From assembly GCA_963674965.2 (NCBI GenBank), contig CAXXFL010000002.1:160001-224000 (forward strand): a stretch of DNA of 64,000 nucleotides. The letters are read 5' to 3'. Below, in pieces: positions 45,284 to 59,494 of this stretch. A program made the position numbers and the translations under genes. This DNA comes from a bacterium. GTDB lineage: Bacteria; RBG-13-61-14; DATKZS01. The notes beneath the pieces are model-generated. The model was not told the DNA's origin. It saw nothing but the letters and a program-made list of their open reading frames with translations, and searched no databases. Each line of letters starts with the position of its first letter. Position 1 is the stretch's first letter.

Positions 45284-45413
45284 AGCCCGCGGCTTACGCC
45301 GCCCATGCATGATGCATGGGCGAGCCAGGCTTGTGGATCGTTGCAGAACTTTCAGTCATATTTAATTCAGGGTCGCCCACGCATTTTGCGTGGGTGAGCG
45401 TGGCGAACCGGCT
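45284..45413 (-). repeat. Repeat family B (REP-like), two half-elements
   Basis: GCCCATGCATGATGCATGGGC and GGGTCGCCCACGCATTTTGCGTGGGTGAGCG; reverse orientation relative to the 48.6-kb and 53.6-kb copies. Confidence 0.8.
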
Positions 45414-48588: not shown

Positions 48589-48951
48589 AGCCCGTTCGCT
48601 TCGCTCACCCACGCAATATGCGTGGGCGACCCGGAATGGTGGAGGCTGGAGGTTGTTTACAAGACCCATGAGCATGGGTCGATATTACAATCAGGGTCGC
48701 CCATGCATCATGCATGGGCGGCGCAAGCCGCGGGCTGATTTCCTCACGCCTCCATTATTCTCTTACTAAGAACGAATATTAGTCTCTTTATAATCTTCTA
48801 ACCCCGCGTCCACAGCCCGTTCGCTTCGCTCACCCACGCAATATGCGTGGGCGACCCTGATTCGTGCCGTGGTTGGAAATCAGGCAATGAGCTTCAAGCC
48901 AGGGTCGCCCATGCATCATGCATGGGCGGCGCAAGCCGCGGGCTGATTTCC
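48589..48951 (+). repeat. Repeat family B cluster (four half-elements; one complete 170-bp unit at 48691-48860)
   Basis: Right arm 48589-48632, left arm 48691-48743, right arm 48814-48860, left arm 48901-48951. Confidence 0.88.
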
Positions 48952-48976
48952 TATACCATGGGGCCGGGAATTTTGA

Positions 48977-49891
48977 TTACGTCCGGGCCAGGAAGTCCAG
49001 GATATGGCCGGCGATCTCCTCGCCCTTGTCCTCCTGGAGGAAGTGGCCGGCGCCCTTGATGGCAATCTCCGGCTGCTCTTTGGCCGTTGGAATGATGAAG
49101 CGAAAATATACGTCGCCCATCCTGGTGATGGGGTCCCCATCCGAGAAAAGGGGAATGGCCGGCTTGTTCCAGGTCTTGAGGAACTCCTGGGCCGCCTTCA
49201 GCTCGGGCGCGGCCTCGTACTCGGGCGTGACCGGGACCATGAGCGGCCAGGCCCTGGCGCCGGCCTTGTACTCGGGGCCGGGGAAAGGCGCCTCGTAGGC
49301 GGCCATCACCTCGGGCGCCATCGCGAGGCCCTTGCCTATGGGATGTTCCTCGTCCAGCTCGAGGAATCCTCCCTTTAATATCTCGCCGATGGGAAGCTCG
49401 TCGGTTGCCTTGACGTAATTGATCCACGTGGTCAGGGCCGGCGGAAGCGGTCCCTCCCCGGTGGGAAGGCCCGTGTTCATGATGACCAGACGGGAGAAGC
49501 GCTCGGGCATGAGGCTGACCACCCGGAGGCCGATCAGTCCGCCCCAGTCCTGGCACGCGAGCGTGATATCCTTGAGGTCCAGCTTCTCGATAAGGGACAT
49601 GATCGTGTCCCGGTGCATCTTGTAGGAATACTCGCCCACCTCGGTGAACTTGTCCGAGCGCCCGAACCCGATGAAGTCCGGCGCGAGGACCCGGTGGTCT
49701 TTGGAGAGGGCCGGGACCATCTTCCGGTAAAGATAGCTCCAGCTCGGCTCGCCGTGCAGGCAGAGGATGGGCTCGCCCGACCCCTCGTCCACGTAATGGA
49801 CGCGCGTCTGGCCTAGCTGGGCGTAGTTGGGCCTATACGGATATCCCGGCAGGTCCTTGAATCTATCGTCAGGCGTTCTGATGACGGCCAT
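48977..49891 (-). CDS. Haloalkane dehalogenase (alpha/beta hydrolase, DhlA-like subfamily)
   Basis: RTPDDRF, HGEPSWSYLYR, QDWGG (Asp nucleophile), GAGHFLQED. Confidence 0.88.
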   Translation of the reverse strand: MAVIRTPDDRFKDLPGYPYRPNYAQLGQTRVHYVDEGSGEPILCLHGEPSWSYLYRKMVPALSKDHRVLAPDFIGFGRSDKFTEVGEYSYKMHRDTIMSLIEKLDLKDITLACQDWGGLIGLRVVSLMPERFSRLVIMNTGLPTGEGPLPPALTTWINYVKATDELPIGEILKGGFLELDEEHPIGKGLAMAPEVMAAYEAPFPGPEYKAGARAWPLMVPVTPEYEAAPELKAAQEFLKTWNKPAIPLFSDGDPITRMGDVYFRFIIPTAKEQPEIAIKGAGHFLQEDKGEEIAGHILDFLART

Positions 49892-49914
49892 GGTCCCTCT
49901 CCTTGTAAGTCCGA

Positions 49915-51735
49915 TTACTTGGCCAGGTTCTCGAGGAAGCTTAGCCTTTTGCCGCCCTTGCCGATAAACTCGGTGACTTTATCCAGGCCGGCGCCCGCCA
50001 CGATGCTTCCATCCTTGATCGGCTCCGGGCGATGCATGCCTCTTCCCTTTTTGACCAGCACCTCGTCGCCGTAGGTATTGTAGTAGGTCCAGCGGACCGG
50101 AGTCTCGTGGGACTTGGGCCCTCCGTTATTAAGCTTGGCTTTCTTCTTGACGCCGTGGGTAATATACCTGGCCATGCCCCTGGTCAGAAGGGTGGGCGGT
50201 CCGATCTCCTTTTTATAGCGGTCCTCCAGGGCGGCCGCCTTCCTTCGTACCTCGTCGCTCGGGTGATGGGTCTTGATCGAGTGCATGAACGAGTAAAAGC
50301 CCGAGGCGATGAGCTTGTCGCGCTTGGCCAGGGCCTGGCGGAAGGGGTCCTGGTCGTTTTTATATTTGGCGTAGGCGTCCATCACGCTTTCCATCATCTG
50401 CATGGTGGGCGGCCCGTTCACGTCTCTCAGCCGGTCGTGGGCGTACTCGAACATCTCGCTGACCTCTTCCCGCGTGATGTTCTTGTAGGAGAACAACTGA
50501 TCGCCCCAGAAGTGGGCGTCCTCCCACCGGTAGGAATCGAGAATCCGCTCCTCCTCCAACATGCGGTCGTATAGCTCCGTTCCCGGGCAGGGAAGGATAT
50601 GCGATATCTGGTAGAACATGGGCTTCAATTGCACGAACTGCTCGATGTCCTCCTTCAAGTTCTCCTTGGTGTGGAAGTCGAACCCAACCACCATGGAACC
50701 GGTGGGCTGAATCCCGTGGGTACGCAAGCCCTCGAAGACCTCCTTGACCTGGTTGCCCTGGCGTTTCTGGTAGGTGTCCGAGGTCTCGTTCTCGCCCGCG
50801 AGAAAACTCTCGACCCCGATCCATACCATCTGGCAGCCGTTGTCCCTTATCTCCTCGGGCGTGAACTGGGAAAGGGACCTGATCGAGCCGAAGGTGTAAT
50901 ACCTCACTCCCCAGGTGCTCTTGTGAGAGCGAAGGAGCCTTCCCAGTTCGTGGACGTATTCCTTGTTGATGAAAAAATCCTCGTCCCAGAGCATGATAAG
51001 AAGTTCCCTAAAGCCCATGCGGCGCTGGAAGTTCCGGATAAAGCGGTAGACCTGCTCGGGCTCGGCCACGTAGATTTTATTCCTCTTGAAGAAGGCGCTG
51101 GTGTTGCAGAAGTCGCAGCCGCTGGGGCATCCCAGGCTGACGAGTATGGAGGGAATTCGAAGGCGGGCGCCGTCCGATTTAATCCCGCCCGAGTGTCCGA
51201 GGAACCCGCTTATGGAGAACATGGGCATGTTGTACTGGGTGATCTCCCTGTCGATGGGCTCGTCGCCCAGGACCCGGCGCAGGAAGCGCACTCCTTCCTC
51301 GCGGCAGAGGAAGTCGGCGTTCTCGCGGATGTAGTCGGCGTCGCCCTCGACGTCGCCGGGAACGGGCGTGGACAGGGCCGAGACCCCGTATCCGCCCACG
51401 ATGATCTTTGTGTCGGGACACTTCTCCCGCGTCAGTTTGATCATCCGGGCTATCTTGGCGGTGTGAAGGCTTTTGAGCTGGAAGCCCACGTAATCGTAGC
51501 CGTTCTCGAGTTCGGCCTCGAAGTCCTCCCAGGTGGGGTTCTCGAGCACCGTGGTCGGGTTGGTGACGTTTTCCGCCAAAAGATAAAGCGCGAAGTAATG
51601 GCCATACATGTCGAGCTGGAAATCCCCGTGCTTTCTGGTCCACCTGGTACTCATAAGGTTGAGGGGGTCCTCGCCCCGGAGGGGGGCGTTGGGGCAGTAG
51701 CTCGCCGTTAAAAGAACTCTCGGTTTGTTATTCAA
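49915..51735 (-). CDS. Radical SAM protein with an N-terminal B12-binding-like domain
   Basis: GCPSGCDFC, DEDF, IGVES, PCPGTELY; TTG start. Confidence 0.85.
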   Translation of the reverse strand: MNNKPRVLLTASYCPNAPLRGEDPLNLMSTRWTRKHGDFQLDMYGHYFALYLLAENVTNPTTVLENPTWEDFEAELENGYDYVGFQLKSLHTAKIARMIKLTREKCPDTKIIVGGYGVSALSTPVPGDVEGDADYIRENADFLCREEGVRFLRRVLGDEPIDREITQYNMPMFSISGFLGHSGGIKSDGARLRIPSILVSLGCPSGCDFCNTSAFFKRNKIYVAEPEQVYRFIRNFQRRMGFRELLIMLWDEDFFINKEYVHELGRLLRSHKSTWGVRYYTFGSIRSLSQFTPEEIRDNGCQMVWIGVESFLAGENETSDTYQKRQGNQVKEVFEGLRTHGIQPTGSMVVGFDFHTKENLKEDIEQFVQLKPMFYQISHILPCPGTELYDRMLEEERILDSYRWEDAHFWGDQLFSYKNITREEVSEMFEYAHDRLRDVNGPPTMQMMESVMDAYAKYKNDQDPFRQALAKRDKLIASGFYSFMHSIKTHHPSDEVRRKAAALEDRYKKEIGPPTLLTRGMARYITHGVKKKAKLNNGGPKSHETPVRWTYYNTYGDEVLVKKGRGMHRPEPIKDGSIVAGAGLDKVTEFIGKGGKRLSFLENLAK

Positions 51736-52155
51736 TTTATTTTCCTTATCCGCGCGAGGCGCGTTTTCGCGCGAGCGTCTCCATAAAGAGCGGACGCCCG
51801 CGTCCGGTTAGACTGAGGTTATTTGGATTTCACTCCCCAAGTCGGCCGGCAAAGGGGGGGCCGGATTTCCGTTATTCCCTCTCACGCGGGAAGTCCCCAC
51901 ACGGACGGGCCCTTTGGATATTTCCCTTCCAACCGACAATCAAGTCTAATGAGAAAAACTCGATTTGTCAAATTCTTTGTTCAAATATAAAATGGCCCCC
52001 AAACGCGGGAAACCCGCTTGTTGAGCAGGTGGTAAAGAATATACACCAGTCGGTAAACCGGATAATATTGACGAAATATTATCATTCAATAGTATCCATG
52101 ACGCCAGGACATGGCAATAAAATACGGCCGGCGCCAACGCTTTTGGGGCGCTTGT

Positions 52156-53559
52156 TCACCGGTCGGGTCCGAAGTCCACGTCCGCTGCGGGCAGGTCTAG
52201 GTAGCGCCCGCTTTCGAGGGCCATCCTTACCGCTATGCCCAGGGCGTCGACCAGGTCGTCGTGTCCGGACTCGGGGAAGGCCAGCATCTCCTCGATCAAG
52301 TCGCCCGCCCCGGTCTCGGGAAAAGTAATCCTTCCCGTCTGCACCAGTCCCTGCAGCCTCATGGCCCGGGCCACCTTGTCCCTGGTCTGCACCACCGACG
52401 AGACCGGGACCCGGCCGTCGCCGCGCAGTCTCTGGACCAGGGCCTCCTGGTAGGAGTTGGACTCGATACCCACCGTCACCACGGGAAAGTCGGTCGAGTC
52501 GTGGGCCGCGAACAAGGTCTTCACCGTCTCGAACTGTTCCTCAAAGGTCAGGCGCGAGCGGTAGATCGAGACCAGGTGAATAGATTTGCCCGACGAGGCC
52601 ACGGTGACGTGGGCGAAGTAGTCGTTGTGGTCCGCCAGGCCGATGGCCAGGTCCACGCCCTGGAACTTCCGGCCCGCCGGCGGGGCCGGGCCGAAACGTA
52701 TCCACTCGGGACGGAATATCTTGCCCTGCATCAGGCTCACGTCGTTTTGATACTGGGAGTTGAATATGGCCGGGCCCGCCTCCTCCCGTTTTTTCCGCAG
52801 GGCCTTAAGAGGGAACTTCTCCTCCCACAGGGCCTTCTCCGATTCTCCGCTTCCCGTAATGGCCTTCTCGATATAAACGGGGACACCCCTTTTAATAAGC
52901 CGCCCGTAAAGGTCGTCGTAATGGTAGCGGGTGCCGATGACCCGAAGCTTGCCTCCGGGCTCGAGGGTGGGTAAAAGTACCTTGTAGTACCAGTTGAAGA
53001 GCCGCTCCCTGCCGCTCCTGGACCTGGCCGACTCCTCGTCCACCACGTCGTCCAGGATGATGAGGTCGTAATGCTTGCTGATGACGGGTCCCAGCGCGCC
53101 CAGGGCGGTGACGGTCGGCTCCTTGGCCGTTTTCGTTCGGGACGCGAGGCATATCTCGGTCTCGGTCCAGGGGGTCCCCTTCAGGCCTCCGGCGATCCGG
53201 ACCACCTCGGGGTTGGACTCGAGGTGGCTCTTGATCTCGCGCAGGAAACCCGAGGCCTGGGCCTGGGTGCTCGAGGCGATGAGCACCCTCACGTCGGGGT
53301 CATCGAGCGCCCGCCGCAGGGTATAGGCCACGGTCATGACGGTCGACTTCCCGTGCCCGCGAGGGGCGAGAAGGAGGGACGTCTCGCGGTCGGCGGCGAA
53401 CCTCCACCATCTCGAGTGGAAGTCGAGGAACTGGTAATTGAGGGTCTTGGTAACGAACTCTTCGTCGTCCTCCAAGGCCTCGGGCTGATCCCGGTTCTCG
53501 AGGAAGTCGATCCAGTTTTCAATCATCTCTCGCCTTTGCTTCCCACTGGCCTTACTCAT
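52156..53559 (-). CDS. Phage terminase large subunit
   Basis: Walker A APRGHGKST, Walker B IILDD, GTRY coupling motif, nuclease GVDLA...DYFA...HDDLVDAL; GGAGG RBS. Confidence 0.9.
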   Translation of the reverse strand: MSKASGKQRREMIENWIDFLENRDQPEALEDDEEFVTKTLNYQFLDFHSRWWRFAADRETSLLLAPRGHGKSTVMTVAYTLRRALDDPDVRVLIASSTQAQASGFLREIKSHLESNPEVVRIAGGLKGTPWTETEICLASRTKTAKEPTVTALGALGPVISKHYDLIILDDVVDEESARSRSGRERLFNWYYKVLLPTLEPGGKLRVIGTRYHYDDLYGRLIKRGVPVYIEKAITGSGESEKALWEEKFPLKALRKKREEAGPAIFNSQYQNDVSLMQGKIFRPEWIRFGPAPPAGRKFQGVDLAIGLADHNDYFAHVTVASSGKSIHLVSIYRSRLTFEEQFETVKTLFAAHDSTDFPVVTVGIESNSYQEALVQRLRGDGRVPVSSVVQTRDKVARAMRLQGLVQTGRITFPETGAGDLIEEMLAFPESGHDDLVDALGIAVRMALESGRYLDLPAADVDFGPDR

Positions 53560-53605
53560 TTTTTCCTCCCTTCTATCCTGGTTGAAAGCTTTGCGCCGCC
53601 GCGAT

Positions 53606-54076
53606 TAGCCTGGGTCGCCCATGCATGATGCATGGGCGGCGCAAGCCGCGGGCTGATTTCCAATCTCCTTCGGGACCCCTTCCGGCCCTATCGGTCGCGA
53701 TTAATTACTTCGTCAAAATCTTCCACCCCCGCGTCCCCAGACCGTTCGCTTCGCTCACCCACGCATGATGCGTGGGCGACCCTTCGTGCCGGCGGAGTCA
53801 CCCCGCCCAGCGCGGGTGGCGCGGATAGCTCGCCTATCCGCGCGGCGAAGCCGTTGGATTTTCATGTACTAGCCTGGGTCGCCCATGCATCATGCATGGG
53901 CGGCGCAAGCCGCGGGCTGATTTCCAATCTTCTTCGCGACTTCTTCCGGCCCTATCGGTCGCGATTAATTACTTCGTCAAAATCTTCCACCCCCGCGTCC
54001 CCAGCCCGTTCGCTTCGCTCACCCACGCATGATGCGTGGGCGACCCTTCGTGCCGGCGGAGTCACCCCGCCCAGCG
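53606..54076 (+). repeat. Direct duplication of a 207-bp unit (53606-53812 and 53870-54076), each containing a complete family B element
   Basis: Near-identical copies with a 264-bp period; GCGCGGATAG/CTATCCGCGC hairpin between them. Confidence 0.92.
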
Positions 54077-54704
54077 ATAAACCCGCGCAGATGGCGGCCA
54101 GGGCCTCGCCGTCCTCCTCGGTGCCGGTCTCCATTTTGACTTGCTCGATCCTTTGCTCGATGACTCTTTTTTCGTCGGGTGAGACGACGGCGGCGAAGAG
54201 CTCGAACTCGGGCTGAGGAACGCTCTCTGCTGCCGCGGCCTGGAGGGCTCCTTCCGCCTCCCCGGCGCTTTGGATGACCGACTCGATCATGCACTCGATC
54301 TCGCGGTCGGACCAGGGCAAGAGTGACGCCATCTCGGCGGCGCTCATCTCATGGCTCAGCTTTTCGAGGAGGGCGGCCAGAAGCTCGGGATCGTTTTCTC
54401 CATGGAGCTCGTTCATCTGGAGGGTCTTAAGCATGGCCTGGGCGTCGTCCAGTTCGGCCACCACCACCGGGACCCGGTCCAGTCCGGCCATATGGGCCGC
54501 CATAAGACGGTGTTCTCCGTCCACCACCTCGAGGCCGCGGCCTTTCCTTCTGGCCAGGATGGGCGCGGAAAAGCCTCGTTGTTCTATCTCCCGCGCCAGC
54601 TTGGCCAGCTTGACCGGACCCATGCGGTTGGGGTTCCATGGGTTGGGCGCGAGGTCCCCGGTGGGTACCCACTCGATCTCAATTCGGCTCGATCCACAGT
54701 CCAT
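53952..54704 (-). CDS. ParB/Srx N-terminal-domain protein (phage type)
   Basis: LAPNPWNPNRM, GFSAPIL, VVDGEHR, MNELHGE; last ~40 codons are encoded by repeat DNA. Confidence 0.85.
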   Translation of the reverse strand: MDCGSSRIEIEWVPTGDLAPNPWNPNRMGPVKLAKLAREIEQRGFSAPILARRKGRGLEVVDGEHRLMAAHMAGLDRVPVVVAELDDAQAMLKTLQMNELHGENDPELLAALLEKLSHEMSAAEMASLLPWSDREIECMIESVIQSAGEAEGALQAAAAESVPQPEFELFAAVVSPDEKRVIEQRIEQVKMETGTEEDGEALAAICAGLSLGGVTPPARRVAHASCVGERSERAGDAGVEDFDEVINRDR

Positions 54705-55326
54705 AGTAATAAACCATCCTTCCCCTTTTCCAGGCGTCAATGAATCCCTTGATCGCGAACCCTTTCCTTTCGGCCAGGTCGCGCCAGTACGCTTTCACGG
54801 CCAACTCGTGGTTGGCGGCCAGGACCGGTCCCGGCTTGGCCCATTGGCCGCCTCTTCGGCCCCCCGGCCTTCCCGGCCAGAGGGCCTCCGCCTTGACTTT
54901 TCCTCCCCTGGCCATGGCCAGCCTCGAGCCGTCGGTAACGGCGACGGCCACTCTCTCCCTTGGTCTCCAGTCCCGGAAAAACGCCTCGATCGTGGGCGCG
55001 GGATTTCCATAGGCGTCGAAGTCGAGGTAACAAATTCCCCCCAGCCTCGGGGCGATCTCCCGAGCGAACCGGAGGTTGTTCATCCTGAGGGGAATGACGT
55101 TCGAGACCGACTCCGCCTCGAGCCTCGAGAGGAGGGCCGAGAATTTTTTAGGGCTTCTCTCGACGGCAAAAACCCTCTCGAAGCCGCCCAGGACGCCGGC
55201 GGCCAGGGAACCGTCGCCCGCGTAAAGGTCGGCGGCCTCGCCGGGACGGACGCCCGCCGCGAGCCTCCTCCTGAGTATCCACTTGATCTCACGGAAACCG
55301 TGGTCCTTTTTTCGTCTCCCGCTCAT
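54679..55326 (-). CDS. Class I SAM-dependent methyltransferase, Trm1/TcmP-like
   Basis: Motif I DLYAGDG, acidic VE after strand 2, motif IV LDFDAYGNP, VTDG; GGAGG RBS. Confidence 0.7.
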   Translation of the reverse strand: MSGRRKKDHGFREIKWILRRRLAAGVRPGEAADLYAGDGSLAAGVLGGFERVFAVERSPKKFSALLSRLEAESVSNVIPLRMNNLRFAREIAPRLGGICYLDFDAYGNPAPTIEAFFRDWRPRERVAVAVTDGSRLAMARGGKVKAEALWPGRPGGRRGGQWAKPGPVLAANHELAVKAYWRDLAERKGFAIKGFIDAWKRGRMVYYYGLWIEPN

Positions 55327-55360
55327 GGCGCTTCCTCCCGAGGAGCGCGTTGACTCGCGC

Positions 55361-55388
55361 TTGACAATACTCGCCAGAATGCCATAAT
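55361..55388 (+). promoter_or_regulatory. Sigma70-type promoter in the 92-bp divergent gap
   Basis: TTGACA-16 nt-CATAAT with TGn; an overlapping TATAAT on the opposite strand; AGGAG RBS before 55419. Confidence 0.5.
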
Positions 55389-55418
55389 TATAAGTATGGA
55401 ATATTCAGGAGAATCGAC

Positions 55419-56666
55419 ATGAGTCTTGACAAGGAAAAACCCGGGACCGTGAAAGAGGAATGCATCGAGGACCACGAGGCCGAGACCGCGGCCCACGAGG
55501 CCTTCCAGGAGATGAAATCGGAGTCGGCCAAGCAAAGCGAGCGCGAGTACCAACGCATGGCCCTCGACCTCCGCTGGGAGGTCCTCGAGTACGTGGACGC
55601 CCATCCCGAGAAGTCGGTCGTCGAGATCGCCAGGCTCTTTGGCATCAAGGAGGGGTCCATACGGGCCTGGAAGGCGCACAGGACCATGGGAACCTATCGC
55701 GAAAATATGGCGGGCAAGGAAAAAACTACCCACCGGGCAAGACAGGCCCCGCTCTTCAAGAGCGAGGCGACGCCCAAGAACAATACGAGGAATTTCATCG
55801 AGAGGAAGCGCTACTCGAACTTCATCCACTTTTTCGACAAGACGCCTCCGGGCGTGGTGTGCCCCCATTTTTATATCCTGGCCCACGCCAACGGCTGCCC
55901 TTATTTCTGCGACTACTGCTACCTTCGGCTCACGCTCCGCCATTACCCCGAGCCCACGGTCTTCTCGAACACGGCCCGCATGTTCCAGGAGATTCGGGAC
56001 TGGCTCCTTTCCAACGAGAGGCCATCCATGCTCAACGCCGGAGAGCTTAGCGACGCCCTGGCCTGGGACCATGAAACCGGGCTCTCGGCCAATCTCATCT
56101 CGCTTTTCTCGGGGCAGTCGAGGCACAAGCTTCTGCTTTTGACCAAGTCCACCAACGTGGAGGGCATCCTTGGTCTCGAGCCCACGCCCCAGGCCGTGAT
56201 CAGCTTCTCCATCAACGCGGCCAAGGTCGCCCGCGCCTATGAAAGGGGGGCGCCCCCGCCGGAGAAAAGGCTCGAGTCCGCGGCGCGCCTGGCCGAGGCG
56301 GGGTGGGAGGTCCGGCTCCGGCTCGATCCCCTCATTCCCATCGAGGGATGGCGAGACGAGTACGCCTCCATGATCGACAAGATCAACGCCGTCGGACCCG
56401 GCGCGGTCACCCTCGGGTCCCTCAGGTTCTTTCGGGCCCTCCTCAGTCACGCTCCCCGCGGAACGGACGTCTTCGAGCATGGGGTCAACCATCAGGACCC
56501 GGACAACCGCCTTCGGGTACCGCTCGAGAAAAGACTCGAGATGTACCGATTCTGTCTCGAGAGGATCGAGGCCCCCCGCCTGGGCCTTTGCAAGGAAACC
56601 GAGCCGGTCCACCGGGAACTGGGACTTCCCGGCATGGGCCAGTCCTGCAACTGCACGGTCGAGTGA
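55419..56666 (+). CDS. Spore photoproduct lyase-like radical SAM protein with an N-terminal helix-turn-helix
   Basis: HTH SVVEIARLFGIKEGSIRAWK; NGCPYFCDYCYL; GELSD, LLTKS, SFSIN, RLDP, LCKE. Confidence 0.82.
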   Translation: MSLDKEKPGTVKEECIEDHEAETAAHEAFQEMKSESAKQSEREYQRMALDLRWEVLEYVDAHPEKSVVEIARLFGIKEGSIRAWKAHRTMGTYRENMAGKEKTTHRARQAPLFKSEATPKNNTRNFIERKRYSNFIHFFDKTPPGVVCPHFYILAHANGCPYFCDYCYLRLTLRHYPEPTVFSNTARMFQEIRDWLLSNERPSMLNAGELSDALAWDHETGLSANLISLFSGQSRHKLLLLTKSTNVEGILGLEPTPQAVISFSINAAKVARAYERGAPPPEKRLESAARLAEAGWEVRLRLDPLIPIEGWRDEYASMIDKINAVGPGAVTLGSLRFFRALLSHAPRGTDVFEHGVNHQDPDNRLRVPLEKRLEMYRFCLERIEAPRLGLCKETEPVHRELGLPGMGQSCNCTVE

Positions 56667-56673
56667 GTTTGGT

Positions 56674-57063
56674 CTATTCATCTTCCATCTTCTCCCGCAA
56701 GGCCTCGATGATTTTTTTCTTCACGTCCTTGCGACGGATAATCGGACCCAAAGAGGGCACTTCCTCCATGGCCTCCCAGAGGACCTTCAGCTCGGTCATG
56801 GGTCCCGCGTCCTCCCCCTTGTCCGACTGGGCCAGGATGCGCATCTGGACCTCGATGGACTTGAGGGCGATCTGGGAGAGCTTGATCCTGTCGGCGCCTG
56901 TTTTGTCCTCGTCCTTTTCCGACATCAGTTCCTTGATGCTTATCATTTTCACGCCCTGGGTCTCGATGAACAGGTCTTCCAATTTGGCGGAACGCCTATC
57001 GAGTTTCGCCTTGGAACGAGCCGGTTTTTTTAGCCTTGCCGTCTTTTTTACCGTCTTTTTCAT
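56674..57063 (-). CDS. Hypothetical helical protein with a basic N-terminus (possible terminase small subunit)
   Basis: AAGGAGG RBS; same strand as terL; function suggested by context only. Confidence 0.7.
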   Translation of the reverse strand: MKKTVKKTARLKKPARSKAKLDRRSAKLEDLFIETQGVKMISIKELMSEKDEDKTGADRIKLSQIALKSIEVQMRILAQSDKGEDAGPMTELKVLWEAMEEVPSLGPIIRRKDVKKKIIEALREKMEDE

Positions 57064-57110
57064 GGTCCCTCCTTTGCCATTTTCAAGAAGCGCCGATTTC
57101 GGGTGGCCAC

Positions 57111-57152
57111 AGCCTTGCTAATTGCCTTGGTTTTAGCTTGGCAAATTGCCTT
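57111..57152. promoter_or_regulatory. Tandem 18-bp repeat with a palindromic core (candidate operator pair)
   Basis: AGCCTTGCTAATTGCCTT and AGCTTGGCAAATTGCCTT, 15/18 identical, 24-bp period. Confidence 0.45.
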
Positions 57153-57528
57153 CCTACTATAGGGAATTGGGGCGCACCAGAGATTACTTTTTTACATCAT
57201 CATATTGGTGGAAGTTGCTCGAATTACCTGAACCGAGTGGTACATCCTATGGCCCATCATGGAAAAAGGCTTGTAAATCAGCGGTTTACGATTGACTGAT
57301 ATTTACCGACATTTTAAATGGCGGACTTTGGCGCAAAATGGCATTATATTGCTTATATGTCTGGAATTGTTGCATAATATTAAATATGTACTTATATATC
57401 ACAGATCGGTTGCACGAGCTTTATCCATTCCAATATTTAATGGCGTCAAAAAATGATTTTTCAGGTCCCGGGCCAATTGTCAATATATCTCTTCGATTTT
57501 AATAGAGAAATATTTTTTATTGTCAAAG

Positions 57529-57545
57529 TTGGCCCGCGAATTGCT
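57529..57545 (+). promoter_or_regulatory. Candidate sigma54 promoter
   Basis: TTGGCCCGCGAATTGCT has the GG-N10-GC spacing; lies 35 nt before the ATG at 57580. Confidence 0.5.
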
Positions 57546-57579
57546 ATTTAGGCGTGTATAATATGAAAGGAGCGATAAA

Positions 57580-57849
57580 ATGGAACGGTCCCGTAAAGTA
57601 AGAATAGTTATGATGAGTTCCGACGTGATGAAGCTTTATGACGTCATGGGTACCCGAGACGACTTCGAGTTTCAGCCCATCACCTTCTACGATCCCCAGG
57701 AATGCCTGGACATGCTCATCGACGTCGACCCCGAGGAAGAGGACTATGGCGGGTCGATCGAGAGGACCAACGCCGAGAAACTGGAAAAGCAGTGGGGCGA
57801 ACTCGAGCTTCGGCTTTCCTTCTTCACCGACGCCCAAAGGTGGCAGTAA
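57580..57849 (+). CDS. Small acidic hypothetical protein (89 aa)
   Basis: AAGGAG RBS; host-like codon usage. Confidence 0.65.
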   Translation: MERSRKVRIVMMSSDVMKLYDVMGTRDDFEFQPITFYDPQECLDMLIDVDPEEEDYGGSIERTNAEKLEKQWGELELRLSFFTDAQRWQ

Positions 57850-58162
57850 TTGGATCGGCCGACCCCGTTCGCGGCCATGCGGCCTTTCGGACCGAGCTTC
57901 GGCCCGAAGCCGGAGCCCATCGCTCAGATATTGCCCCAGCCCGACAATTCCCGGCGCCGTTATATCAATCCGTTCTAATTTACCCGACATAACCGATCCC
58001 TTGTCCGTCCGAAGCGAAGCCGTACCTTGCCCGGAGTGAGGCCTCCCGATTTCCGCCGGCGTGACACTAACCGCAAAATATGATACCCTGTATAAATATA
58101 AACGGAGGCGCCGTGCCCTTATGCCGGGACCCTGGGCCGCCGCGATCTCCGGGGATTGAAAA

Positions 58163-58699
58163 ATGAAGATTGGAGTCATATCGGATACCCACGTGTCGGG
58201 CGCAAGCCTTCACCCCAAGAAACTCGCCAGCCGCGTCATCAATAAAGTGAACGAGTCGGCCTCCGTCCTGTGCGAAACCGTGCGGCCCTACTTCGGCGAC
58301 GTGGACCTGATCCTTCACGCCGGCGACTTCGTGTGCATCGACGTGATGACGGCCCTCGAGGAGTTCGCTCCCGTCGAGGCGGTGGCCGGAAACATGGACC
58401 CCTACGAGATCAGCTCGAGGCTCGAGACCAAAAGGGTGGTGAGCGCGGGCGGCATGAAGATCGGCATGATGCACGGGTGGGGCCCTCCCGCCGGGCTCGA
58501 GAAGAAAATCAGGAAACACTTCGACGACGTGGACCTGATCGTTTTCGGACACACCCATTACCCCTTTGATAAAGAGGTGGCCGGCGTCCATATGTTCAAC
58601 CCCGGCTCTCCCACCGACCGAAGATGGGCCCCCTCCCACTCGATAGGAATCATCGAGGTGGACAAGGAATTGAAGACCAGCCACGTTCAACTGGACTGA
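58163..58699 (+). CDS. YfcE/MJ0936-family metallophosphoesterase
   Basis: ISDTH, HAGD, AGNMD, HG, FGHTH, FNPGS. Confidence 0.9.
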   Translation: MKIGVISDTHVSGASLHPKKLASRVINKVNESASVLCETVRPYFGDVDLILHAGDFVCIDVMTALEEFAPVEAVAGNMDPYEISSRLETKRVVSAGGMKIGMMHGWGPPAGLEKKIRKHFDDVDLIVFGHTHYPFDKEVAGVHMFNPGSPTDRRWAPSHSIGIIEVDKELKTSHVQLD

Positions 58700-58712
58700 A
58701 AATTTTCGCCTG

Positions 58713-58736
58713 GGCCCTTTTTCTGGGCCTTTTTTC
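58713..58736 (+). terminator. Possible intrinsic terminator
   Basis: GGCCC-loop-GGGCC followed by a T tract. Confidence 0.45.
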
Positions 58737-58768
58737 ATTCGGGGATTTCTCTTGCCGGCATATTTCTC

Positions 58769-58802
58769 TTGACAACGCTTCTTTTAGTTAGTATTAACTA
58801 AA
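58769..58802 (+). promoter_or_regulatory. Promoter with an overlapping palindromic TetR-type operator
   Basis: TTGACA at 58769; perfect inverted repeat TTTAGTTA-GTAT-TAACTAAA at 58783-58802. Confidence 0.65.
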
Positions 58803-58858
58803 TAGACCGGCGGGTATATCCTATTCGCCGGTCTTAAAGGAAGGAGAAAAGGCGGCGC

Positions 58859-59494
58859 ATGGCGAAAAACCGGATGAAGGCCGAGGACAGGAGGCGGGAG
58901 ATACTCGAGGCGGCGGTGAGGACCATCGCGGCCAACAACTTCGAGAAGGCCACCACCGCCATGATCGCGAGGGAGGCGGGGGTCACGGAGCCGCTTATCT
59001 ATCACCACTTCAAGAACAAGCGGGGCCTGCAACTGGCGGTGCTGGAGGCGGTCAAGGAGAACGTGCTCTCCAGGTCCGAGGAGATGAAGGAACTGGATTC
59101 CGTCTCCATGAGCCGTCTTCGCTCTTACGGCAAACAAAGGCAGCGCGAGATAAGGCGCAACCCGGAGCACGTCAAGATCATGATCAAGGCCCTGGCGGTG
59201 GAGGACAAGAAGATCAAGGAGAAGGCCTGGGAGATCATGGAGTCGGGCCAGTCGCTGGTCCGGATGCTTCTCTCGAGGGCGGTCCGGCAAGGCGAGTTGG
59301 ACGACAAGGTGGACGTCGAGATGGGCGCCTGGCTGATCGTCGCCTGGGCCGGGCTATTATCCATCGTCAATATCCTGGGCAAGGCCGAACGGATTCCGGA
59401 GGAGCGGATCGACCGGTTCGTCGCCCTGATGGACTCGTACATGACCCTGGGCATGGCGCCCGAGGGCAAAAGCGCGTCCACAAGAAAGAAGTAA
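58859..59494 (+). CDS. TetR/AcrR-family transcriptional regulator
   Basis: RREILEAA...IAREAGVTEPLIYHHFKNK. Confidence 0.92.
   Translation: MAKNRMKAEDRRREILEAAVRTIAANNFEKATTAMIAREAGVTEPLIYHHFKNKRGLQLAVLEAVKENVLSRSEEMKELDSVSMSRLRSYGKQRQREIRRNPEHVKIMIKALAVEDKKIKEKAWEIMESGQSLVRMLLSRAVRQGELDDKVDVEMGAWLIVAWAGLLSIVNILGKAERIPEERIDRFVALMDSYMTLGMAPEGKSASTRKK

Follow-up and report, generated by a model that had tools for sequence, protein, structure and literature searches.

A large-terminase cassette in the candidate phylum RBG-13-61-14 is probably the packaging arm of a split, vertically inherited element resembling gene transfer agents

To our knowledge, the demonstrated lineages of gene transfer agents (GTAs) are few; each arose by a separate domestication, and Alphaproteobacteria are the source of nearly everything known about them. 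A virus must keep its genome as one packageable piece, whereas a host-owned particle factory need not. The defective prophage PBSX has a contractile tail and occupies one locus with its own regulators. As described by Kogay et al. 2022 (PMC9662315), GTAs and other viriforms encode caudovirus-like structural and packaging proteins; their genomes are fully endogenised, often at multiple loci; they are inherited vertically and co-diversify with their hosts, which gives congruent phylogenies; they package mostly random host DNA and cannot package their own full gene set; and their particles deliver DNA to other cells. Here we describe a five-gene cassette around the gene of a large terminase (TerL), found in a 64,000-nucleotide stretch (the window) of a genome from the uncultured phylum RBG-13-61-14. 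Judged from its sequence and that of its relatives, the cassette is likely the packaging arm of a vertically inherited, domesticated, phage-derived head-tail element that resembles GTAs and is split in this genome, referred to as G000. Likeness to GTAs was assessed by the properties listed in that paper and from genes alone. A literature search found nothing that links GTAs with RBG-13-61-14, nor spore photoproduct lyase (SPL) with terminase, ParB and prophage, and no phage-element study appeared among the titles and abstract openings of the listed papers that name the phylum.

The cassette is located on contig C2 of G000 (Table 1). TerL is present in a single copy in G000 by tblastn of the genome. 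Its Walker A residues (G68, K71, and S72), Walker B residues (D165, D170, and D171), and acidic nuclease residues (D303, E366, and D434/D435/D438) are invariant in 10 of 10 aligned relatives, and a GGGAGG sequence stands about 8 nt 5' of the ATG. Hence, the intact motifs and strong ribosome-binding site noted in the original prediction, which had been made from the window alone, are borne out. The same holds for its further description of the locus: the ParB and methyltransferase genes upstream of TerL with their overlap, the small basic open reading frame (ORF), and the SPL-like radical SAM gene on the opposite strand are all intact where it placed them, and TerL is followed by a non-coding gap and then a host metabolic gene.

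Table 1. Features of the cassette and its surroundings. Positions refer to the window; "above cut-off" refers to the family's own score threshold.
Feature	Position	Strand	Remarks
Gap after TerL, 420 nt, non-coding	51736-52155		B12-binding radical SAM gene beyond
TerL (large terminase, ATPase and RNaseH-like nuclease), 467 aa	52156-53559	-	phrog_38 E 1.5e-95; Terminase_6C E 7.2e-11, above cut-off
Tandem repeat, 264-bp unit x1.8 (264 + 207 nt, 97% alike)	53606-54076		Dispersed genomic repeat family
ParB/Noc-like protein	53952-54704	-	ParB_N E 5.9e-12, above cut-off
Methyltransferase (MTase)-like ORF, 215 aa	54679-55326	-	Lineage-specific, class-I methyltransferase-like; overlaps ParB ATG by 26 nt
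Divergent intergenic region, 92 nt, AT-rich	55327-55418		Between MTase-ParB-TerL genes and radical SAM gene; putative divergent promoters
Helix-turn-helix (HTH)-SPL-family radical SAM protein, 415 aa	55419-56666	+	PF20903 E 2.8e-24, above cut-off; HTH_28 weak
Small helical protein, basic N-terminus, 129 aa	56674-57063	-	Kept at this cassette end; homologues in 8 genomes including G000
Non-coding region, AT-rich	57064-57579		5' of small ORF; GC 0.468 in 57001-58000; putative promoter region
Acidic ORF, 89 aa	57580-57849	+	Otherwise only in closest relative G003, same position

The terminase had been called an orphan without virion genes. This is true inside the window but not for the genome, as the structural proteins adjoining TerL in relatives match one place in G000 by tblastn, C1:116079-124399, on a different contig. 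The whole structural cluster spans C1:111053-124360 (about 13 kb) and runs from portal to tail fibre/SLT; these are the unlinked portal, capsid, and tail genes that the original prediction had proposed to search for. Specifically, the cluster encodes a cement/decoration protein (PF09956, E 4.6e-16), a Mu gp36-like adaptor (PF07030, 28.1 bits, above cut-off), a tail fibre (phrog_11439, E 3.4e-49), a "minor tail" protein, and an SLT transglycosylase. The portal-sized protein, which is 69% identical to that of G001, has a weak Portal_Mu match, and its ESM-Atlas neighbours are viral portal clusters at 0.97. The 339-aa capsid candidate (75% identical to that of G001) weakly matches PF25209 and has ESM-Atlas neighbours in Phage_capsid_4/Mu-GpT clusters at 0.97-0.98. 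Searching 1.84 billion representatives with a capsid profile gave 345 matches at E <= 1e-3; among 86 of these relatives sampled, 39 match PF25209, and none of the 39 matches another family. The single GenBank phage match for the capsid is Microcystis phage MACPNOA1 (28% identity), where the matching protein sits in a head module with the same local gene-size order. No tape-measure, tube, or sheath gene was seen in the cluster, so the tail is probably short.

The contigs that carry the two loci measure 769 kb and 1.61 Mb, and neither locus is near a contig end: were the contigs neighbours, some 323 kb or more would still separate them. Being split over two loci, the element would be unable to package itself as one unit in G000. 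All five cassette ORFs and all structural ORFs are nevertheless open, and the composition of the element is host-like, with a GC content at third codon positions of 0.75-0.89 versus 0.83-0.84 in adjoining host genes.

We compared 13 species genomes of the phylum (G000 to G012). A TerL search of 40 other genomes found the protein in all 12 other phylum members. Its identity to the G000 protein is 57-62% within the family, 49-54% within the order, and 48% for the class's other family; outside the phylum, only weak matches were obtained, in 5 of 28 genomes. The capsid gene and TerL each have one match in every one of the 13 genomes, and RpoB is present in all 13. The relatives keep the cassette order of small ORF, radical SAM, MTase-like, ParB, and TerL. 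In six genomes (G001, G002, G004, G005, G011, and G012), TerL leads directly into the portal gene and the rest of a conserved, roughly 13-kb block; the AT-rich TerL-portal spacer measures about 500 nt in G001, G002, and G011, 230 nt in G004, and 95 nt in G005. In two genomes (G003 and G007), the halves are on the same contig but inverted, with 5-8 kb of host-like genes between them. In four (G000, G006, G008, and G009), the cassette is not beside the portal gene, and the sequence upstream of the portal gene is free of it for 5.6 kb in G006, 10.7 kb in G008, and 3.2 kb in G009. The arrangement is not assignable for G010. Hence, the halves are separated in at least six of the 12 assessable genomes, both parts are intact wherever this can be assessed, and the split state with intact genes recurs in other families. 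The TerL of G007 seems split, but this reflects stretches of N in its sequence record and is no demonstrated frameshift.

The flanks of the element indicate which half has moved. The C1 locus of G000 is flanked by genes for CutA1, TrpA, an alpha/beta hydrolase, and an AMP-binding enzyme, and the CutA1-TrpA-hydrolase flank is common to two different genera, those of G000 and G001. This places the structural operon at an old chromosomal position and makes the cassette the part that moved in G000. The gap after TerL, where the portal gene stands in the six relatives with a contiguous element, appears to be one side of the rearrangement breakpoint. The gap holds no ORF with a family match, and Rfam gave nothing in 49000-59000 at E <= 0.1. 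A short-read contig crosses the junction from TerL to the host gene with 0 differences, although the source runs may be the window's own. No nucleotide similarity was found among the TerL-portal spacers and the two G000 breakpoint regions except between G002 and G004, and the breakpoint is unmapped; likewise, the gap genes of G003 and G007 have homologues scattered over G000 and give no synteny clue. Like those around C1, the flanks in other genomes hold ordinary host genes: in G001 these encode an ABC ATPase, a sulphur transporter, and Fic, and in G011 they are TPR and HGD-D genes. Between the SLT end and the CutA1-TrpA-hydrolase flank, G001 has a Fic/DOC gene along with a pair of uncharacterised ORFs, each about 275 aa long (L057 12377-14828), which are missing from the equivalent place in G000.

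The element has diverged together with its hosts. All well-supported clades of the RpoB tree (family f5, family f3 and each of its two genera, genus g3, and family f1) reappear in a maximum-likelihood tree built from six concatenated element genes. The sole difference is inside f1, where the element joins G001 with G003 (96/97) and RpoB joins G000 with G003 (94/97, not among the well-supported clades). In a TerL tree, the 11 full-length TerLs of the phylum form one clade with an SH-aLRT support of 99 against 28 outgroups, which were taken from metagenome-assembled genomes (MAGs) of other phyla and from IMG/VR contigs after dropping partial sequences and three loci duplicating phylum genomes. 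RpoB identity to G000 is 79-83% in the same family, 68-75% in the same order, and 65-66% in f5, the other family of the class. Element identity declines in parallel: that of the capsid from 74-76% through 62-70% to 53-54%, and that of the portal-like protein from 68-71% through 59-64% to 57%. Between G002 and G004, the closest species pair, the ratio of nonsynonymous to synonymous substitution rates (dN/dS) is 0.10-0.27 for all 14 element genes measured versus 0.078 for RpoB, values that are approximate because dS is near saturation. They indicate purifying selection. The dS of the element (0.57-1.3) brackets that of RpoB (0.69), a pattern that fits an equal age of element and host rather than recent transfer. 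Taken together, these sequence comparisons are best explained by a gene set that was already fixed in the ancestor shared by the 13 genomes and has been passed on vertically from then onwards. The conservation, selection, and phylogeny analyses had been proposed as checks on the idea of a domesticated phage-derived unit, and presence in 13 of 13 genomes, co-divergence with RpoB, and purifying selection all speak for it.

A rival reading is that the element is a working temperate phage or satellite whose lineage co-speciates with the hosts. TerL comes from a true phage terminase family, its closest IMG/VR counterparts reach 42% identity, a ParB-like gene is present 4-5 kb upstream of TerL in 29 of the closest 80 IMG/VR loci, and the element is contiguous in six genomes. 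However, the portal-like gene, the capsid, the radical SAM gene, and the MTase-like gene are each present in 0 of these 80 loci, so that no viral contig is close, and the TerLs of GenBank phages reach 29% identity at most. The element also comprises only about 18 kb of genes, in a single copy per genome, with host genes between the halves in at least six genomes and the same chromosomal flank in two genera. Integrase, replication, and repressor/lysogeny genes were not seen in the flanks examined (G000, G001, and G011), where serine recombinases and att sites were not searched for. Tyrosine-integrase (PF00589) matches number 70 in the 13 genomes, but only three of them are on contigs carrying the element, all in G000 and each at least 336 kb away. 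The absence of an integrase from the window, as originally reported, is upheld for this family, as none of the 12 PF00589 matches of G000 falls inside it; serine recombinases and transposases were not included in the search. A functional prophage would be recognised by att repeats and by modules for integration, lysogeny, and replication adjoining the structural genes; no such module was found in these searches, and we regard a temperate phage or satellite as very improbable. The original prediction had also allowed that a full prophage at this place in relatives would reduce the cassette to a simple remnant. Relatives do carry a head-tail cluster beside TerL, but without integrase, replication, or lysogeny genes in the flanks examined; as the structural genes are kept in G000, the cassette is not a simple remnant.

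Related TerLs with 45-51% identity also occur in Planctomycetota MAGs (L042, L043, L044, L047, L050, and L052). They match the N-terminal ATPase half only, although kilobases of downstream sequence are present, and in one MAG the C-terminal nuclease half is on another contig (L043 versus L053). These half-matches may represent a split terminase.

The radical SAM, MTase-like, and ParB genes form a trio that accompanies TerL in 11 of 11 genomes of families f1 to f4. The catalytic CX3CX2C cysteines of the radical SAM protein (C160, C164, and C167) are invariant in 14 of 14 sequences. Against the NCBIfam SPL equivalog TIGR04070 it scores 97.5 bits, below the cut-off of 400, so that it is a member of the SPL superfamily (PF20903) but not of the spore photoproduct lyase equivalog. 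Its catalytic domain is 45-54% identical to widespread stand-alone SPL-family proteins of about 295 aa from other phyla, while the N-terminal HTH extension of about 130 aa is conserved and confined to long forms, which are the first 43 among the 120 proteins listed. G000 has a second, stand-alone SPL-family paralogue (C6:150672-151298) that is 31% identical to the cassette enzyme over residues 145-343. The ParB-like profile aligns with Noc/Spo0J/ParB structures in PDB (E 7e-20) over positions 1-192, including the DNA-binding part, and the protein matches phrog_723, phrog_620, and phrog_498 (E 6e-25 to 4e-21). CTP-dependent clamps of the ParB/Noc type have the motif GERR at the CTP-binding box; the corresponding position here reads DGEHR. 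The MTase-like ORF appears to be translationally coupled to ParB through their overlap. It reaches 16.9 bits against a Pfam cut-off of 28, and all its Pfam and NCBIfam matches are below cut-off, but a profile of 11 relatives matches class-I RNA methyltransferases in PDB (E 2.3e-6). The family conserves the blocks DLFAGxGE, VEKD, and DFDAYGSP, which we take to be the SAM-MTase motif I, the acidic residue after strand 2, and the motif IV loop. Scoring the 8000 candidates that share most words with the query, out of 5.8 billion clusters, detected 27 relatives, every one at E <= 1.3e-61. The small 129-aa protein has no match in family libraries or PDB. As a small-terminase candidate it is unsupported, and the helical protein preceding TerL in f5 is unrelated to it (hhalign probability 0.1). 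The acidic 89-aa ORF has a 52% identical counterpart adjoining the small ORF in G003 (L013/L025) and no family match.

The original prediction had offered two options, the packaging locus of a dispersed GTA-like particle and a stand-alone DNA-marking, cutting, or defence system. The data favour the former, with the portal, capsid, and tail genes found unlinked on C1. A particle-independent system of TerL, ParB, methyltransferase, and radical SAM protein would explain why the trio and TerL stay together in f1 to f4 even when apart from the structural genes, and one relative has extra ParB-like and SPL-like genes at the ParB-TerL junction. However, the trio is missing in family f5, where TerL and the structural genes remain: a sigma-70 region-4 protein and the unrelated helical protein precede TerL there (G011, L018 8070-9033), and the tail end carries a CBM-containing protein, a 1103-aa Kelch-repeat protein, and an M15 peptidase in place of SLT (L061 1779-7718). 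The conserved association of TerL is thus with the structural module and not with the trio; TerL never occurs without a capsid gene in any genome examined. PADLOC-DB 2.0 gave no system match. TerL, the radical SAM protein, the small ORF, and the 89-aa ORF had 0 hits, the ParB match was only to generic MTase_II models via the ParB domain, and the MTase-like ORF weakly matched the unrelated mad2 model (E 2.9e-4). A stand-alone system is thus barely credible.

In G000, a repeat that the original prediction had not mentioned separates ParB from TerL (Table 1). Its family gives 105 blastn high-scoring segment pairs across all seven contigs, 25 of them of at least 140 nt; the unit is about 180-264 nt with 25-nt palindromic arms of type GGGTCGCCCATGCATGATGCATGGG. 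The repeat codes for the final ~40 residues of the ParB ORF, while the ParB of relatives stops 5-17 residues past the conserved core in 9 of 10, and ParB and TerL are projected to lie -14 to +149 nt apart in 8 of 10 relatives, compared with 392 nt in G000. Further copies in the window are at 45284-45408 and 48589-48954. In G010, a 4.6-kb insertion between ParB and TerL (L022 1969-6524) contains a second ParB-like ORF and two SPL-like radical SAM ORFs with 25-28% identity to that of the cassette. Accessory genes may insert preferentially at the ParB-TerL junction.

This invasion of the junction, the rewritten ParB tail, the separation of TerL from its portal gene, and somewhat faster evolution of the structural genes in G000 are what one would expect of a decaying prophage remnant that is functionless in G000, its structural half lost or moved. 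Such decay is quite improbable. All cassette and structural ORFs are open with the catalytic residues of TerL kept, the split with intact genes is also found in other families of a phylum in which 13 of 13 genomes carry the element, dN/dS is low in the sister genus, and the cassette genes of G000 are not accelerated.

Several observations weigh against a functional packaging arm of a domesticated element. Compared with its sister genomes, G000 shows 3-8 identity points more divergence from outgroups in its structural genes, and its terminal branch measures 0.53 versus 0.24-0.30 in the sisters, which could mean relaxed constraint after the split; the dN/dS values are, as said, approximate. The replaced ParB tail and the widened ParB-TerL spacing may disturb expression of the operon or of TerL. 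Short-read contigs break at the repeat, where depth rises 6-10 fold, and the ParB-TerL join is unbridged. The portal and capsid assignments are weak, relying on faint or transitive sequence similarity: AlphaFold2 models were unfit for fold comparison (mean predicted local distance difference test scores of 41.9 for the capsid, from a 13-row alignment, and 51.3 for the portal-like protein), and PDB profile searches with both proteins gave chance-level matches only. No small terminase was recognised among the cassette proteins in family, PHROG, NCBIfam, profile, and PDB comparisons. Finally, the phylum sample is small, at 13 species genomes, and nearly all of these are fragmented MAGs.

With these points weighed, a GTA-like element split in G000 still accounts best for the locus. 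The sequences themselves show the gene content, the split, the presence in all 13 genomes, the co-divergence, and the purifying selection; in G000, a rearrangement parted the packaging arm (C2, window 52156-57063) from the structural operon on C1. From the genes we infer how particles would form, what DNA they would package, whether they would transfer it, and what the trio would do. The operon would build procapsids with a portal; TerL made from C2 would dock on the portal and cut and pump DNA, probably by the headful as in its terminase family; and short tails and fibres would attach afterwards. The parts would act in trans and need not be packaged jointly, so that the element would behave as a gene transfer agent (viriform) and not as a virus. 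The ParB/Noc-like protein, whose gene immediately precedes TerL in most relatives and is coupled translationally with the MTase-like ORF, is the likeliest candidate for a DNA-recognition or small-terminase-like partner; the simplest guess for its role is a small-terminase-like or DNA-marking one. The MTase-like and radical SAM enzymes appear to have been added in one order only; probably they mark or repair the DNA destined for packaging, or else regulate the locus.

The domesticated particle might instead serve another end than gene transfer, as a PBSX-like killer (phage-like bacteriocin), in DNA export, or in some other host function, with the cassette still its packaging arm. The genomic evidence for this is identical, and nothing computed separates transfer from killing; the tail end, moreover, encodes cell-wall hydrolases (SLT and M15) and receptor-binding-like fibres. 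However, the retention of TerL, with its nuclease motifs intact, and of the portal-like gene argues that DNA packaging matters, and no toxin or immunity gene was recognised in the flanks examined. We consider a non-transfer particle unlikely. A more specific form of the GTA-like reading is possible but doubtful: the element may be an independently domesticated, phylum-wide GTA with a Mu-like head, a short tail, and, in one order, a trio that modifies the cargo. The Noc/ParB-like clamp would then replace the small terminase, and the Trm1/RsmD-like methyltransferase and HTH-fused SPL-like radical SAM protein would mark or repair the loaded host DNA, making this a GTA that modifies its cargo.

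If the element is GTA-like as proposed, it would add a further, deep-rooted example of virus exaptation, one that extends over an entire uncultured phylum. Its occurrence in contiguous, inverted, or fully split form in different genomes offers a natural experiment, and the trio, joined to TerL but not in its closest viral relatives, points to an unstudied step of DNA selection or modification before packaging. The locus also holds a lesson for annotation: before an "orphan terminase" is labelled a remnant or a defence gene, the rest of the genome and its relatives should be consulted.

As far as its genes tell, and it is known here from genes alone, the element appears to have the four genomic properties of GTAs that can be assessed in silico, namely caudovirus-like genes, endogenisation at more than one locus, presence in every phylum genome examined, and co-divergence with the host under purifying selection. 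Like RcGTA-type Rhodogtaviriformidae, BaGTA, and VSH-1/BhGTA, it encodes head, portal, terminase, and tail proteins of the caudovirus type, while genes for replication or lysogeny were not seen; it is endogenised, multi-locus in several genomes, single-copy, vertically inherited, co-diverging, and small (about 18 kb). Different from known GTAs, it belongs to an uncultured candidate phylum, its tail is apparently short, its head is Mu-like (weak Portal_Mu match, GpT-like capsid, and gp36), and its packaging arm carries HTH-SPL-like radical SAM, MTase-like, and ParB/Noc-like genes. With PBSX-type defective prophages and phage-like bacteriocins it shares a chromosomally fixed, non-replicating, phage-derived nature, terminase included, but its tail seems short, its gene set is split, and a killing function is not indicated. 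The ParB-like gene upstream of the terminase is found in tailed phages as well (phrog_723, phrog_620, and phrog_498). In contrast to tailed-phage ParB/methyltransferase arrangements, the ParB here is a separate, Noc/Spo0J-like protein directly abutting TerL; the methyltransferase is a separate, lineage-restricted, Trm1/RsmD-like protein instead of the usual fused N6A/N4C DNA methylase; and the radical SAM partner is unmatched in the closest 80 viral loci. That radical SAM protein shares the fold signature and the CX3CX2C motif with the spore photoproduct lyase family (PF20903; TIGR04070), from which it differs in its lineage-specific N-terminal HTH extension and in being embedded in a terminase cassette.

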